The position numbers were made by a program, and so were the translations under genes. From assembly GCA_018110785.1 (NCBI GenBank), contig JAGBHD010000012.1:390-64389 (forward strand): DNA of 64,000 bases, read 5' to 3'. This stretch comes from Oscillospiraceae bacterium (GTDB lineage: Bacteria > Bacillota > Clostridia > Oscillospirales > JAGBHD01). The notes under the pieces are model-generated. The model saw nothing but the letters and a program-made list of their open reading frames with translations. It had not been told where the DNA came from and did no database searches. Positions 16,033 through 57,261 of the stretch are shown here, in pieces (position 1 is the first letter of the stretch; the number at the start of each line of letters is the position of its first letter).

Positions 16033-17526
16033 ATGCGACGGATAACACATTTTCTTATAAACGGAATTATGCTGACGGGAGTTTCCCTTGTTTTCCAGCT
16101 TGCCGAAAGCATATTTACCGTTTACATTTCTGCAAAAATCGGAGAAAGCGGGGTAGGTCTTTTCGGACTTGTTATGTCTATTTACCGCTTCGGCGTTACC
16201 CTTTCCCTTTCAGGGATAAACCTTGCCGCTACCCGAAGAATCGCCGAAAGATTAGCGGAGAAAAATTATTCTCGCCTTAAAAGCGTTTCCTCTCGATGTA
16301 TCTCTTTATCCTTAATTTTCGGAACCACTATTGCTGCGGGGCTTTTTATTTTATCTCCTTTTTTAGGTAAAACCGTATTAAAAAGCGAAGATACCATTAT
16401 CTCTCTTCATATTCTTTCTTTATCCCTCCCTTTTCTTGCGGCTTCTTCCGCAATTTCAGGCTATTTTACCGCCGTCAGAGCTCCTGCCAAAAGCACTATA
16501 TCTTCTGTTTTTTCATTTATTATTCGCATTCTATCTACTATATTCTTCCTTTCGGTTTTACCCTTTGGGGTTAAAAGCTCCTGCCTTTCTTTATCGCTCG
16601 GAACTACCCTTTCAGAAATCGCAGGATTTATTGTAATTTTCATTCTTTTTCTTTTCGACCGAAGAAAATACTGTTCGGAGATTACTAAAGGAGAGTCTAC
16701 CACAAAGGAAATTTTATCGGTTTCTCTCCCTGTTGCTCTATCTTCCTATGTCAGAAGCGCTCTTTATACTTTAGAACAGCTTTTTATCCCCTCATCTTTA
16801 ATGAAATACGGGCTTTCAAGAACCGATGCGCTCGGCAATTACGGAATGATAAAAGGAATGGTACTCCCCGTTTTAATTACGCCTTCCGCTCTTATGTATT
16901 CCTTTTCGGGGCTTTTAGTTCCTGAGCTTGCAGAGGCAAAGAAGCTCAACGACAACAAAAAGACCGAAAAAATAACCTCTTATGTATTTTATCTTTCTTT
17001 TTTATATTCGGTTGCGGTTTGCGGAGTTATCTTCTTTTATGCCGATGAGCTTTCTTTAAGCCTATTCAAAAACACTACACCCGCCTTTTATTTAAAGTCT
17101 TTGGCTCCTTTAACTATTGTTATGTATCTCGACGGGGCGGTTGATAATATTTTAAAGGGGCTGGGTGAGCAGGTTTACTGCATGAGGGTTAATATTTTAG
17201 ATGCAGCTTTAAGCTTGGTATTAGTTTTAATATTAGTTCCGAAAATGGGTATAGCGGGGTATGCCTTTGTTATTCTTATAAGCGAAATATTTAACACATT
17301 TTTAAGCGTTTTAAAGCTTTTAAAAATCACATCACTTAAAATAAATTTCTCCCGTTCTCTTTTGATGCCGATATTCTTTATAATATCCGCTTGCTGCTTT
17401 TCGAAGCTTTTATCTCTTATTTTCCCCACTCTTAATTTCTTCATTGCGGCGGGTTTTGCAGTTATTACCTATATTCTCTTATCGGTTTGCTTTTCCGTTT
17501 TTAAATGGAAAAAGGGGGTTATATAA
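16033..17526 (+). CDS. MOP-superfamily flippase (SpoVB / polysaccharide biosynthesis protein-like)
   Basis: About 14 TM segments over 497 aa. N-terminal pattern GxMLTxVSLxFQ typical of SpoVB/MurJ-like proteins. Confidence 0.7.
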   Translation: MRRITHFLINGIMLTGVSLVFQLAESIFTVYISAKIGESGVGLFGLVMSIYRFGVTLSLSGINLAATRRIAERLAEKNYSRLKSVSSRCISLSLIFGTTIAAGLFILSPFLGKTVLKSEDTIISLHILSLSLPFLAASSAISGYFTAVRAPAKSTISSVFSFIIRILSTIFFLSVLPFGVKSSCLSLSLGTTLSEIAGFIVIFILFLFDRRKYCSEITKGESTTKEILSVSLPVALSSYVRSALYTLEQLFIPSSLMKYGLSRTDALGNYGMIKGMVLPVLITPSALMYSFSGLLVPELAEAKKLNDNKKTEKITSYVFYLSFLYSVAVCGVIFFYADELSLSLFKNTTPAFYLKSLAPLTIVMYLDGAVDNILKGLGEQVYCMRVNILDAALSLVLVLILVPKMGIAGYAFVILISEIFNTFLSVLKLLKITSLKINFSRSLLMPIFFIISACCFSKLLSLIFPTLNFFIAAGFAVITYILLSVCFSVFKWKKGVI

Positions 17527-17730
17527 CCGAAAGAGGCTTCTCTGACAAAGAGAGGAGTCTCTTTTCTTGCTAAAGACTATCTAAATGGAGCAGAATCGAG
17601 GCAAAAGTAAGTAAAAGCACACCATTTCAGTTAAACTGTAAACTCTGTTGACAGTTTTTTAAACTTTAATTCAGCCATATTAGCACCGCTTTTTTGATTA
17701 AATTATATCATAATTAACGGAATAATTAAA

Positions 17731-17901
17731 ATGAAATATCTTTCGGATGTGAAATAATGACCTACGGTCATTGTGAAATATTGCTCCTTCGCCGCAATGT
17801 GAAATGAAATTTGCCAACATTCGCGTTAGCGAATATTTCACATTTACGAAGTAAATATTTCCAGCAAAGCTATTTCACTTGCCCTTCAGGGCAAATTTCG
17901 T
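17731..17901. repeat. Array A: GTGAAAT cores (forward, then inverted) punctuating variable mini-hairpins
   Basis: GTGAAAT at 17749, 17773, 17799 (ATGAAAT at 17731). ATTTCAC at 17835, 17872 (ATTTCC 17857, ATTTCG 17895). Hairpins at 17756-17772, 17780-17798, 17819-17834, 17842-17856, 17879-17894. Confidence 0.7.
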
Positions 17902-17908
17902 TGAAAAT

Positions 17909-17947
17909 AAAAAGGCTTTTGTCGTCTGACAAAAGCCTTTTTATTTT
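17909..17947. terminator. Bidirectional intrinsic terminator (13-bp stem)
   Basis: AAAGGCTTTTGTC-GTCT-GACAAAAGCCTTT flanked by A and T runs. Lies between the convergent flippase gene and the tRNA genes. Confidence 0.85.
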
Positions 17948-17948
17948 C

Positions 17949-18023
17949 TGGTGACCCGTACGGGAATCGAACCCATGTTACCGCCGTGAAAGGGCGGTGT
18001 CTTAACCGCTTGACCAACGGGCC
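17949..18023 (-). tRNA. tRNA-Glu(UUC): tRNA-Glu (anticodon UUC), CCA encoded
   Basis: Hand fold gives acceptor GGCCCGT/ACGGGTC, anticodon arm CCGCC-CTTTCAC-GGCGG, T-arm GGTTCGATTCC. Confidence 0.9.
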
Positions 18024-18026
18024 TTA

Positions 18027-18103
18027 TGGTACCGGTAGTCGGATTTGAACCAACGACACTGCGGGTATGAACCGCATGCTCTAGCCAACTGAGCTATACC
18101 GGC
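18027..18103 (-). tRNA. tRNA-Met(CAU): tRNA with CAU anticodon (elongator Met or lysidine-modified Ile2), CCA encoded
   Basis: Hand fold gives acceptor GCCGGTA/TACCGGT, D-loop AGCTCAGTTGG, anticodon arm TGCGG-TTCATAC-CCGCA, T-arm GGTTCAAATCC. Confidence 0.85.
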
Positions 18104-28408: not shown

Positions 28409-29521
28409 ATGGACAAGCATTTATTTATCTGCCCTTGTATGTTTGGGCTGGAAAGCGTTTTAGCGGGAGAGATTAAAAGACTCGGCGGAGAAGATGTCGT
28501 TACGACTGACGGAAAGGTTAGTTTCAGCGGAAATACAGATATGATAGCCCGCGCAAATATAAATCTTAGGACTGCTGAAAGAGTGCTTTTAGTTTTAGGC
28601 TCTTTTACCGCCACTTCTTTTACGGAGCTTTTTGATAAAACAAAGGCTCTCCCTTGGGAGAGGTATATCGGAAGGGATAATAATTTCCCCGTTAAAGGCT
28701 ATTCCCTTAATTCCAAGCTTTTCAGCATTCCCGATTGCCAGAAGATAATAAAAAAAGCGGTGGTTAGCCGCCTTTCAGAAAAATACCGCATTTCCTGGTT
28801 TGAGGAAACAGGGCCTTTGATGCAAATTCAGTTTTCTATTTTTAAGGATACTGCTACCTTAATGATAGACACATCGGGATATGCGCTTCATAAAAGAGGT
28901 TATCGCAAGACATCTAACGCGGCGCCGATAAAAGAAACCTTGGCGGCAGGAATTATAGACTTCGCGCGAGTTCGCTCCGGCGGCAGTATTTACGACCCTT
29001 TCTGCGGAAGCGGTACTTTTCTTATTGAATCGGCTCTAAGGGCTACAAACACCGCTCCGGGCCTTATGCGCCCATTTCAGGCGATGCGGTGGAATTGGAT
29101 CGACCGAAAAGTTTGGTATAATGCCAAAGATGAGGCGAGAGATAAGATAAATCCTAACCCCGATCTTATTTGCTACGGCAGTGATATTGACCCTGAGGCT
29201 ATAAATCTGACGATGGAAAATGCCCGCGCGGCGGGAGTAGAAAAATATATCAAGGCTGAGGTTCTTGATATAAAGGATTTTAAGCCCAAAACAGAGAATG
29301 GTATTATTTTCGCAAATCCCCCTTACGGTGAACGCCTTTTGGATATAAGACAAGCCGAGAGAATTTATAAAACAATGGGAAAGGTTTTCCCGAAAGACGG
29401 ATTTTCCAAATATATCGTTTCGGCTAGTGAAGATTTTGAAGACTTTTATGGTTTAAAAGCAAATAAAAACCGGAAACTTTTCAATGGCTCTCTTCGCTGC
29501 AGAGTTTATATGTATTATTAG
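28409..29521 (+). CDS. THUMP-domain class I SAM-dependent RNA methyltransferase (RlmL/YpsC-like)
   Basis: THUMP N-terminus, DPFCGSGTFLIE, ANPPYGERL. Confidence 0.85.
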   Translation: MDKHLFICPCMFGLESVLAGEIKRLGGEDVVTTDGKVSFSGNTDMIARANINLRTAERVLLVLGSFTATSFTELFDKTKALPWERYIGRDNNFPVKGYSLNSKLFSIPDCQKIIKKAVVSRLSEKYRISWFEETGPLMQIQFSIFKDTATLMIDTSGYALHKRGYRKTSNAAPIKETLAAGIIDFARVRSGGSIYDPFCGSGTFLIESALRATNTAPGLMRPFQAMRWNWIDRKVWYNAKDEARDKINPNPDLICYGSDIDPEAINLTMENARAAGVEKYIKAEVLDIKDFKPKTENGIIFANPPYGERLLDIRQAERIYKTMGKVFPKDGFSKYIVSASEDFEDFYGLKANKNRKLFNGSLRCRVYMYY

Positions 29522-29692
29522 AAATTTGCAATGAATTGCAACCTTGCGGCAGCATGAATTGAAAGCTGATGCTTTCGTGAATCGCCTGCGGCATGAATTG
29601 TGCCTTTGGCACATTAGTTGCATTTCAATTAATGGAGCGAAGCGAGAAATTATGGCATAGCCAATTCATGATGCGACAGCATCAATTCATCT
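29521..29692. repeat. Array B: ATGAATTG cores (forward, then inverted) punctuating variable mini-hairpins
   Basis: ATGAATTG at 29531, 29554, 29593 (GTGAATCG 29577). CAATTCAT at 29662, 29683 (CAATTAAT 29626). Hairpins at 29561-29576, 29599-29613, 29653-29663, 29669-29684. Confidence 0.7.
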
Positions 29693-57060: not shown

Positions 57061-57121
57061 AATAAAAACCTCCCCTCCGCTTTTATCAGCAGAAGAAAGG
57101 ATATATTTCCTTTGAACGGCT

Positions 57122-57219
57122 GAAGCGGGATGCGACCACTGCACCGCAGGGTTTCCCCTTTCGCCCGAACGACAACTCCCCGTTCATTCGATACTTAACG
57201 CGCACTTGGTCTACTCTTC
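57122..57219 (-). promoter_or_regulatory. THF (tetrahydrofolate) riboswitch
   Basis: Minus strand reads GAAGAGUAGACC..GCGCGUUAAGU..GAAUGAACGGGGAGUUGUCGUUC..GGGCGAAAGG..CUGCGGUGCAGUGGUCGCAUCCCGCUUC. This matches the conserved blocks AGUAG, GCGUUAAGU, GAAUGGGAUGUCGUC, GCGGUG, GCAUCCGCUC as I remember the E. siraeum aptamer. Confidence 0.85.
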
Positions 57220-57261
57220 AAATAATTTTTATCGGAAGGGCTTTAAAAACCCTTCCGATTT

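Follow-up and report, generated by a model that had tools for sequence, protein, structure and literature searches.

A mirror-image pair of Gut-1 motifs behind a tRNA operon of an Oscillospiraceae bacterium, the apparent head of a decayed PF05635 gene unit

Intervening sequences (IVS) that carry an S23p/IVP open reading frame (PF05635) are known in the 23S rRNA of Leptospira and Coxiella. They lie inside helix 25 or helix 45 and are excised by RNase III. A second described system is Avd of the diversity-generating retroelements (DGRs), which is a pentameric four-helix bundle (PMC6182149). A third is the Gut-1 motif (RF01706), filed by Rfam and Weinberg et al. (2010, Genome Biol 11:R31, PMC2864571) as 'Gene; sRNA' with covariation. 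The supplement of that paper gives one sentence on Gut-1, and in the open literature on the motif we found only the 2010 catalogue entry and one paper that used Gut-1 as a folding benchmark. No mirror pairing, long-range pair, tRNA adjacency, promoter or protein gene was found for Gut-1 in the searchable papers, and arrays were not mentioned in the literature on TIGR02436, IVP and RF01706.

Here, we analyzed an array of short boxes and small hairpins (Array A) in a stretch of 64,000 nucleotides, hereafter called the window. The assembly has 1.40 Mb in 63 contigs, with 39.5% G+C and 97% completeness. Array A lies in a gap of about 422 nt between a SpoVB-like flippase gene, which ends at 17526, and tRNA-Glu (Table 1). 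On the minus strand, tRNA-Met and tRNA-Glu are followed by the bidirectional terminator, four GTGAAAT-type boxes with hairpins and the centre. Then come four ATTTCAC-type boxes with hairpins, a putative extended -10 promoter, a ribosome-binding site and a 15-codon stump. The terminator has A and T runs on either side and is orthologous to that of the same operon in a genus-mate (G001); thus, it is part of the tRNA operon and not of the element. In agreement with this, homology with a related unit of another genome (G046, described below) begins only in the terminator T-run. An earlier reading of the window, made from the letters alone (the sequence-only reading), had put a terminator with a 13-bp stem about 10 nt after the array. 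The gap is in fact 1-2 nt, and each arm has 21 nt.

Table 1. Positions of Array A and its neighbours in the window.
Feature	Position	Strand	Description
tRNA operon promoter	18168-18140	-	Perfect TTGACA-17-TATAAT
tRNA-Met	18027-18103	-	Operon with tRNA-Glu
tRNA-Glu	17949-18023	-	Array A directly behind, same strand
Bidirectional intrinsic terminator	17903-17948		Arms 17903-17923 and 17928-17948, perfectly complementary
tRNA-proximal half	17830-17903	-	Gut-1 match, 54.1 bits
Boxes of tRNA-proximal half	17900-17895, 17878-17872, 17863-17857, 17841-17835	-	CGAAAT, GTGAAAT, TGGAAAT, GTGAAAT; on the plus strand, exact ATTTCAC at 17835 and 17872, degenerate ATTTCCA at 17857 and ATTTCGT at 17895
Hairpin of tRNA-proximal half	17879-17894		TTGCCC-TTCA-GGGCAA
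Hairpin of tRNA-proximal half	17863-17871		Weak, 3-bp stem
Hairpin of tRNA-proximal half	17842-17856		ATTTAC-GAA-GTAAAT
Segment X	17890-17902		First box and 5' arm of first hairpin
Centre	17803-17834	-	Hairpin 17819-17834 and segment X' 17803-17815
Hairpin in centre	17819-17834		ATTCGC-GTTA-GCGAAT
Promoter-proximal half	17729-17810	+	Gut-1 match, 50.1 bits; reads as ATTTCAC-type anti-boxes on the minus strand
Boxes of promoter-proximal half	17799-17805, 17773-17779, 17749-17755, 17731-17737	+	GTGAAAT at 17799, 17773 and 17749; ATGAAAT at 17731
Hairpin of promoter-proximal half	17780-17798		ATTGC-(9 nt)-GCAAT
Hairpin of promoter-proximal half	17756-17772		AATGACC-TAC-GGTCATT
Hairpin of promoter-proximal half	17738-17748		Weak, 3-bp stem
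Putative promoter	17702-17730	-	From sequence reading and homology with G046; TGATATAAT; -10 TATAAT 17707-17702, extended TG 17710-17709, weak -35 TTTAAT 17730-17725
Ribosome-binding site	about 17689-17684	-	GCGGTG
15-codon ORF	17678-17631	-	MAELKFKKLSTEFTV and stop; homology to start of G046 gene
Span homologous to complete G046:C9 array-promoter-IVP unit	17634-17910	-	85% over 280 nt

The boxes were located by sequence reading and a motif count. All the positions that the sequence-only reading had assigned to GTGAAAT and to the inverted or degenerate forms of ATTTCAC were borne out when the letters were read again, and the small hairpins that it listed between them were found as given. It had also described the anatomy correctly, in that the cores stay constant, the hairpins vary and only the cores are arranged symmetrically. 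Two boxes can be added to it, namely ATGAAAT at 17731 and a GAAAT at 17806 that abuts the box at 17799. Over the whole 64 kb, GTGAAAT showed no enrichment (7 copies found against 10.5 expected, or about 0.03 per 170 nt), and five of the seven window copies lay inside 130 nt. A genome scan with a shuffled control, which the sequence-only reading had proposed, was carried out for any 7-mer that occurs at least three times at 17-34 nt spacing with a hairpin in each interval. It returned 25 chains at about a dozen loci, whereas five Markov shuffles gave 0-1. The clustering of the boxes and the scan of shuffled genomes rule out a chance origin of Array A.

We found that the Rfam covariance model RF01706 has two full-length matches (1-77) in Array A, one in each half. 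The curated gathering score of the model is 50 bits. Because both halves exceed this threshold, Array A is a convergent, mirror-image pair of Gut-1 motifs, and the earlier statement that it belongs to no named repeat family has to be given up. The three hairpins, the GUGAAAU linkers and the covarying stems that define Gut-1 were all found in the Array A family. In addition, segment X' in the centre is complementary to segment X (13-nt arms, 92%). The centre of every element contains the reverse complement of box 1 and the 5' arm of hairpin 1, and this long-range X/X' pair covaries across all box families, with at least 12 different sequences over copies and families.

Array A had been described as a stand-alone object, and it is instead one copy of a multi-copy element. 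Our search of its own genome gave 18 Gut-1 matches, from which eight GTGAAAT-type elements were obtained, all of them mirror pairs. Each of the eight directly follows a same-strand tRNA or tmRNA terminator (Asn, Glu, Leu, Gln and tmRNA; contig ends cut the other three). Read in the tRNA direction, such an element consists of a T-run with CAAC, box 1 with hairpin 1, three further box-hairpin units, the centre, and four anti-box-plus-hairpin units. Sister families with other boxes exist in the same genome (GTTATAT/ATATCAC; ATGAATTG; AGCTAAAT; ATGAAGTA). The ATGAATTG family includes array B (window 29521-29692), which sits between a stop codon and a terminator, that is, in a 3'-UTR position.

The distribution of Gut-1 in the order is patchy. 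The number of matches per genome ranges from 0 to 48, and matches were found in 27 of 61 genomes of the order and in 3 of 150 genomes sampled elsewhere in the phylum. Near-identical full elements were found in different families of the order. Some elements form tandem units of about 290 nt, and many stand at contig ends. In the relatives, 24 of the 35 elements with enough flanking sequence have a same-strand tRNA gene just upstream, and the protein gene (PF05635, see below) is retained behind the element in just 3 of 20. For most copies, among them all eight with GTGAAAT boxes here, the genome contains no cognate gene. A blastn search with the consensus element gave no match in the phage or plasmid collection. 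In all, the Gut-1 element behaves as a spreading repeat.

These observations bear on the view of Gut-1 as a free-standing structured sRNA, in which both halves would be transcribed toward the centre and single-stranded GUGAAAU segments would titrate an RNA-binding protein. The filing of Gut-1 as an sRNA gene and the covarying hairpins agree with this view. However, the consensus scan found a promoter before neither half, and just one weak plus-strand site inside the array. The minus-strand half begins 1-2 nt past a strong terminator, and the convergent halves have no terminator between them. Moreover, the patchy copy number, the near-identity across families and the decayed copies point to a spreading repeat rather than to a conserved sRNA gene. 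We consider a free-standing sRNA quite unlikely, and the label 'sRNA' that Rfam gives to Gut-1 may be wrong or incomplete.

The turnover of these elements can be seen by comparing related genomes. The tRNA-Met/Glu locus has three states in three related species: a GTGAAAT array with a stump in this genome; an orthologous terminator, no array and four other genes in the genus-mate G001; and an ATGATAT-family array followed by a different small gene in a sister species (flippase 73% identical). Where G000 carries a GTGAAAT element without a gene at the tmRNA locus, the array of G001 belongs to the GTGAAG family and precedes a PF05635 gene that loses its family similarity partway along. Because four genes differ, no exact element boundary or duplication could be read from the G001 comparison at the tRNA-Met/Glu locus, and the other G001 loci are broken at contig ends within repeats. 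The regions behind tRNA genes in these small genomes of gut Clostridia are hot spots with a fast turnover of units.

Presence and absence between relatives, multiple intergenic copies and inverted pairs would also be expected from a REP/BIME- or MITE-like repeat that a Y1 HUH transposase moves by way of single-stranded DNA hairpins, with the four-helix-bundle gene as a passenger. One Y1_Tnp gene is on the same contig, just beyond the window, and the c(GNA)g loops of the hairpins are of the hyperstable DNA type. However, Y1_Tnp (PF01797) was not found in the six genomes richest in arrays, namely G053 (48 matches), G001, G004, G013, G033 and G046. Among the 61 genomes, 15 have both Y1_Tnp and arrays, 12 arrays only, 10 Y1_Tnp only and 24 neither. 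The hairpin sequences differ between units, which is not the case in REP copies, and no target-site duplication or terminal inverted repeats were found at the outer ends. Such a transposase repeat appears highly improbable.

What Array A once preceded was suggested by an 85% match between the window (17910-17634) and a locus in another family of the order (G046:C9). This locus is a complete unit, with the same array behind tRNA-Pro, then the same promoter and ribosome-binding site, and an intact 121-aa gene starting MAESKLRKLSTDFAVKIIKL. The match takes in the promoter, the ribosome-binding site and the first 15 codons, and the DNA alignment ends at 17634. The putative promoter of the window aligns with the TGGTATAAT promoter of the intact unit; its weak -35 abuts the last box of Array A, and the minus-strand site was not listed by the consensus promoter scan, the -35 being weak. 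The 121-aa protein belongs to PF05635/TIGR02436 ('23S rRNA intervening sequence protein', four-helix-bundle, Avd-like), in which IVP N-termini such as MAENKLADLSTEFAV can be compared with it. The solved structure closest to its family is PDB 2RLD (E = 1e-27), which has five chains.

All that remains of the gene behind Array A is a stretch of 15 codons with homology to the beginning of the G046 gene. Since the homology ends after codon 15, the remainder of the gene has probably been deleted. Thus, the match to a complete unit and the loss of the gene suggest that Array A is the non-coding head of a decayed array-promoter-PF05635 unit, a dead cassette, and not the isolated array that was first described. 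The flippase gene adjoining Array A is 67% identical between genus-mates. An identity of 85% across families, compared with this value and combined with a different tRNA partner, argues that the unit came in horizontally or by transposition.

The identical stump was also found in a second assembly of this species, whose flippase is 99% identical and whose contig ends inside the array. The protein of the closest intact homologue of the window matches the GTGAAAT-clade proteins, and no protein of this clade is encoded in the assembly. Because the gene is cut to 15 codons and its clade is missing from the genome, this copy of Array A is most probably a relic that could exert no more than side effects, for example through a residual promoter or through added structure after a strong terminator. 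The copy has decayed and is unlikely to matter to the cell.

We then considered how the boxes are related to the protein. Both PF05635 genes of this genome have a box-hairpin array directly before the gene, and the copy on contig 16 stands between an rRNA-methyltransferase-like gene and the PF05635 gene. Among 30 PF05635 loci in relatives, 19 have a box-hairpin array in front, and in the remaining 11 the ribosome-binding site is directly preceded by contiguous 7-8-nt repeats. In the 61 genomes of the order, Gut-1 and PF05635 occurred together in 24, Gut-1 alone in 3, PF05635 alone in 6 and neither in 28; this co-occurrence is descriptive and not a formal test, because related genomes are not independent. 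All six genomes with PF05635 only are of the contiguous-repeat type.

A maximum-likelihood tree of the 30 PF05635 proteins was labelled by box type. The 21 box types required 20 label changes, which is the minimum, and shuffled labels required 25.5 on average (0 of 200 shuffles as low). Similar boxes were found in sister clades, with RTGAAG next to RTGATG and ATGATAT, and RTGAAAT next to ATGAATTG. Box sequence and protein co-diverge. The proposal in the sequence-only reading that the array binds a protein gains indirect support from this co-divergence and from the co-occurrence. Against this, co-divergence of box and protein is also to be expected from plain linkage in one inherited unit.

The hairpins between the boxes are almost purely Watson-Crick paired. 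In 106 distinct spacer hairpins, we counted 601 Watson-Crick, 2 G-T, 0 A-C and 3 other pairs. Pairing by RNAfold gave 682 Watson-Crick pairs, with 7 G-U on the tRNA-sense strand and 1 on the other strand, so that the comparison of G-U with A-C between strands (7 top, 1 bottom) involves few non-Watson-Crick pairs. By eye, the terminator stems of these genomes are also near-purely Watson-Crick, which makes the scarcity of G-U weak evidence. About 13% of the spacers are broken by uncompensated changes, and these are decaying copies. In two hairpins that align cleanly, compensatory double changes were found at 5 of 6 and 6 of 6 pairs (11 of 12).

The loops follow the boxes. Of 42 loops that adjoin GTGAAAT-form boxes, 32 are c(TNC)g or TNNC, and of 61 that adjoin ATTTCAC-form boxes, 35 are c(GNA)g or GNNA. 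The c(GNA)g loop matches a hyperstable DNA mini-hairpin motif. Hairpins with stems of 5-7 bp would probably not extrude from a DNA duplex, which favours a single-stranded form of the array. The coupling of loop and box persists where the halves stand in reverse order relative to the tRNA. Being independent of the order of the halves, it indicates that each box-plus-hairpin is a polar module and that the element consists of two sets of modules in mirror orientation. From one family to another, the boxes do not keep the same polarity with respect to tRNA and gene. A fixed box orientation to the tRNA was considered as a sign of read-through RNA, and this fails in the other box families.

If the boxes formed an operator array on double-stranded DNA, the protein or another factor would bind them as duplex and repress or activate the cassette promoter, much as the omega repressor of inc18 plasmids acts on its heptads, and the hairpins would be incidental. 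Here and in the intact units, the last box abuts the -35 region; the mirror symmetry makes both halves look alike on a duplex; and the near-absence of G-T and A-C pairs in the stems (2 and 0 against 601) is in line with such a role. However, the box spacing ranges from 15 to 28 nt, and such a range does not favour a fixed phase along a duplex. Near-perfect palindromes with covarying stems make up the spacers throughout, and their loops are polar (c(TNC)g against c(GNA)g or GNNA), all of which would be meaningless on a duplex. Arrays were also found between cistrons without a promoter and in the 3'-UTR position. An operator on duplex DNA is unlikely on these grounds.

The fold of Array A was calculated for both strands, and each reached -52.9 kcal/mol (z = -4.7 and -5.3 against shuffles). 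In the predicted minimum-energy fold of both strands, boxes pair with anti-boxes to form a 'ladder'. The nested multi-branch fold that the sequence-only reading had offered is therefore predicted by thermodynamics as far as this pairing of box and anti-box goes. If the element served in RNA processing or insulation, tRNA read-through RNA would fold into these helices and be cut, or stall RNA polymerase, in a manner similar to the RNase III excision of the 23S IVS. In its favour, the anti-boxes complement the boxes in every family, the site is directly behind stable-RNA genes, and the protein is the namesake of the 23S IVS elements. However, pairing does not demand identical boxes within an array. 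The conserved X:X' pair closes the first half alone and competes with the ladder, and a strong terminator stands upstream. Besides, 7-bp helices interrupted by junctions are poor substrates of RNase III. We regard a functional ladder of this kind as very unlikely.

The best explanation, which we hold to be somewhat more probable than its negation, is that Array A is the Gut-1 head of a decayed unit and that its boxes are putative cognate sites of a homo-oligomeric PF05635/TIGR02436 protein. Whether the boxes are binding sites of an oligomeric four-helix-bundle protein at all is, judged from the sequences, about evenly balanced. Under this explanation, boxes of 7-8 nt would be read by a homo-oligomer (the relative 2RLD has five chains), and the boxes of one array would be alike because identical subunits read them. 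In single-stranded nucleic acid, the spacer hairpins would fold out and bring the boxes side by side. The folded-out array would then mimic the contiguous heptamer arrays that stand before related genes of the same protein family. With two mirror-image sets, the element might work from either strand, or its boxes might pair with the anti-boxes. An RNA form could come from read-through of the tRNA operon or as part of an mRNA (the contig 16 copy, array B), and a DNA form from the strand exposed during replication. As to stoichiometry, a pentamer has no obvious fit to sets of four boxes.

Two features of the arrays favour this explanation. Boxes are identical within an array and differ between the arrays of one genome, as a homo-oligomer predicts, whereas pairing alone needs no such identity. 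Spacing as irregular as this, together with polar loops, would be understandable only if the nucleic acid were single-stranded. Against the explanation, most complete units have their promoter between array and gene; thus, the array is outside that mRNA, and a role as RNA would need read-through from the tRNA operon. The many copies without a cognate gene and the box polarity that varies between families count against it as well. We lean toward a strand-symmetric role, because the design is mirrored, wobble pairs are nearly absent and the polarity toward neighbouring genes varies.

A wider hypothesis, which is possible but doubtful, is that Gut-1 arrays and TIGR02436/IVP proteins form one hitherto unrecognised class of selfish nucleoprotein elements, which home to stable-RNA genes, at their 3' flanks or in their hairpin loops. 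The short, evolvable box code shown between fold-out hairpins would be read by a four-helix-bundle protein in the shape of a ring, and orthogonal pairs of box and protein would coexist in one genome. The homing targets proposed in this hypothesis are tRNA, tmRNA and, as 'IVS', 23S rRNA.

Gut-1 has been in Rfam since 2010 without organism, context or function, and PF05635/TIGR02436 proteins have been orphans for about 30 years; the Array A locus and its relatives tie the two together. New in the present analysis are the reading of this copy as a probable truncated cassette, the result of the box-versus-protein tree, the loop-polarity rule, the negative transposase profile and the three-state turnover at one tRNA locus.

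Several known classes were compared with Array A and rejected. A CRISPR has constant repeats of about 23-50 nt, unique non-palindromic spacers and cas genes, whereas Array A repeats a constant segment of 7-8 nt, has palindromes in the variable positions and consists of two inverted sets. For a MITE, outer terminal inverted repeats and a duplication were looked for and not seen in the eight own copies and in relatives, and X:X' encloses just the first half. For REP/RAYT, the palindromes differ from unit to unit, and Y1_Tnp was not found in 12 of the 27 array-bearing genomes. A 23S rRNA intervening sequence was rejected for this copy, which is behind tRNA-Glu in a window that contains no rRNA.

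Nevertheless, the elements resemble the 23S rRNA IVS in their protein family, their association with stable-RNA genes, their inverted symmetry with the capacity for a long stem, and their sporadic distribution, which suggests mobility. They differ in that they lie behind a tRNA terminator and have the gene outside the inverted arms. The protein shares a related fold family with Avd, which is an oligomeric nucleic-acid-associated accessory protein; unlike in a DGR, no reverse transcriptase, template repeat or variable repeat is nearby, and the sole reverse transcriptase of this genome is on another contig. Like REP/BIME-RAYT and pneumococcal BOX elements, these are small, intergenic, multi-copy palindromic modules behind genes, often in inverted pairs. 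However, REP elements have one common palindrome and depend on a Y1 transposase. In the present elements every palindrome is different, it is the short linkers that stay constant, and a link to Y1 is missing.

The omega repressor of inc18 plasmids binds arrays of WATCACW heptads, and the BoxA heptamers of P1 parS are ATTTCAC. Array A shares with both the 7-bp boxes in direct and inverted orientation near promoters, and similar letters (ATTTCAC, ATATCAC). In contrast, omega heptads and P1 BoxA are contiguous or at fixed spacing on duplex DNA, have RHH/HTH readers and have no hairpins between them. Array A is like Gut-1 itself in that each half has three hairpins parted by GUGAAAU and loops of the form C-UNC-G. 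Here the catalogued motif makes up a single arm of an element of about 175 nt with mirror symmetry, which goes beyond it in having a conserved long-range pair, a fixed site behind tRNA terminators, a promoter and, if intact, a protein gene.

A second box-hairpin element, array B, was found in the window, where it is flanked by the stop codon of a plus-strand gene (28409-29521) and by a bidirectional terminator. Because of this position, array B is probably transcribed as the 3' UTR of that gene. Its box type was also found in the array preceding an intact PF05635 gene on another contig of the same genome (C16, 10720-10990). Beyond the truncated ORF next to array A, about 65 nt (17565-17630, minus strand) separate this ORF from the flippase terminator, and they showed no similarity to the intact array-promoter-PF05635 unit. 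The locations of the repeat and RNA features are summarized in the table.

Locations of the repeat and RNA features (G000, genome of the window; G001, genus-mate genome)
Feature	Location	Strand	Detail
Array B, box-hairpin element	window 29521-29692		boxes ATGAATTG/CAATTCAT
THF riboswitch aptamer	window 57121-57220	minus	78.3 bits
GC-rich module (L133-L135)	G000:C19:6816-7115; C45:62520-62822; C62:9749-9950		~110 nt
Contiguous TTCACTY heptamer runs	G000:C44:628-700; C58:24384-24450
Solitary CAATGAAAT	G000:C4:7588-7640		3' of tRNA-Ser(cga) terminator, then unrelated sequence
23-bp direct repeats	G000:C53:7990-8105		six to seven copies of AAAATCTGTCGGATTGGAAATCC, upstream of gene
tmRNA locus (L090)	L090:760-1300 (on G001:C49)		tmRNA gene, then GTGAAG-family array, promoter and PF05635 gene downstream

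At the tmRNA locus of the genus-mate, the PF05635 gene appears to be truncated or fused past about 70 codons, inside an open frame of 514 aa. The genome of the window has a sole Y1 transposase gene, of IS200/IS605 or RAYT type, located about 2.5 kb beyond the window end on the same contig (C30:66887-67243), and a sole reverse transcriptase (C22:33072-33635).

The 23-bp repeats, which lie on a contig of 8.7 kb, were rejected as members of the box-hairpin class. They are iteron-like in look, and thus the contig may be a plasmid replicon.

Other repeats were detected behind tRNA terminators of this genome. A GC-rich structured module (GGGACTCGAA...GAGTCCCC) recurs 3' of the terminators of other tRNA genes, and no match to it was found in Rfam at E <= 0.01. 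The solitary CAATGAAAT corresponds to positions 1-9 of the Gut-1 consensus; it may be the footprint of a lost element, or it may be a preferred target. The TTCACTY runs adjoin the terminators of tRNA-Leu(caa) and tRNA-Gly, directly 3'. On C44 the run is followed by a conserved module, GGGTTCGAATTCATACGCAAAA...TGTAACCCATAGACA, which in relatives (L023, L045) also sits between Gut-1 units arranged in tandem. These runs represent the hairpin-less type of box array that is found ahead of some PF05635 genes.
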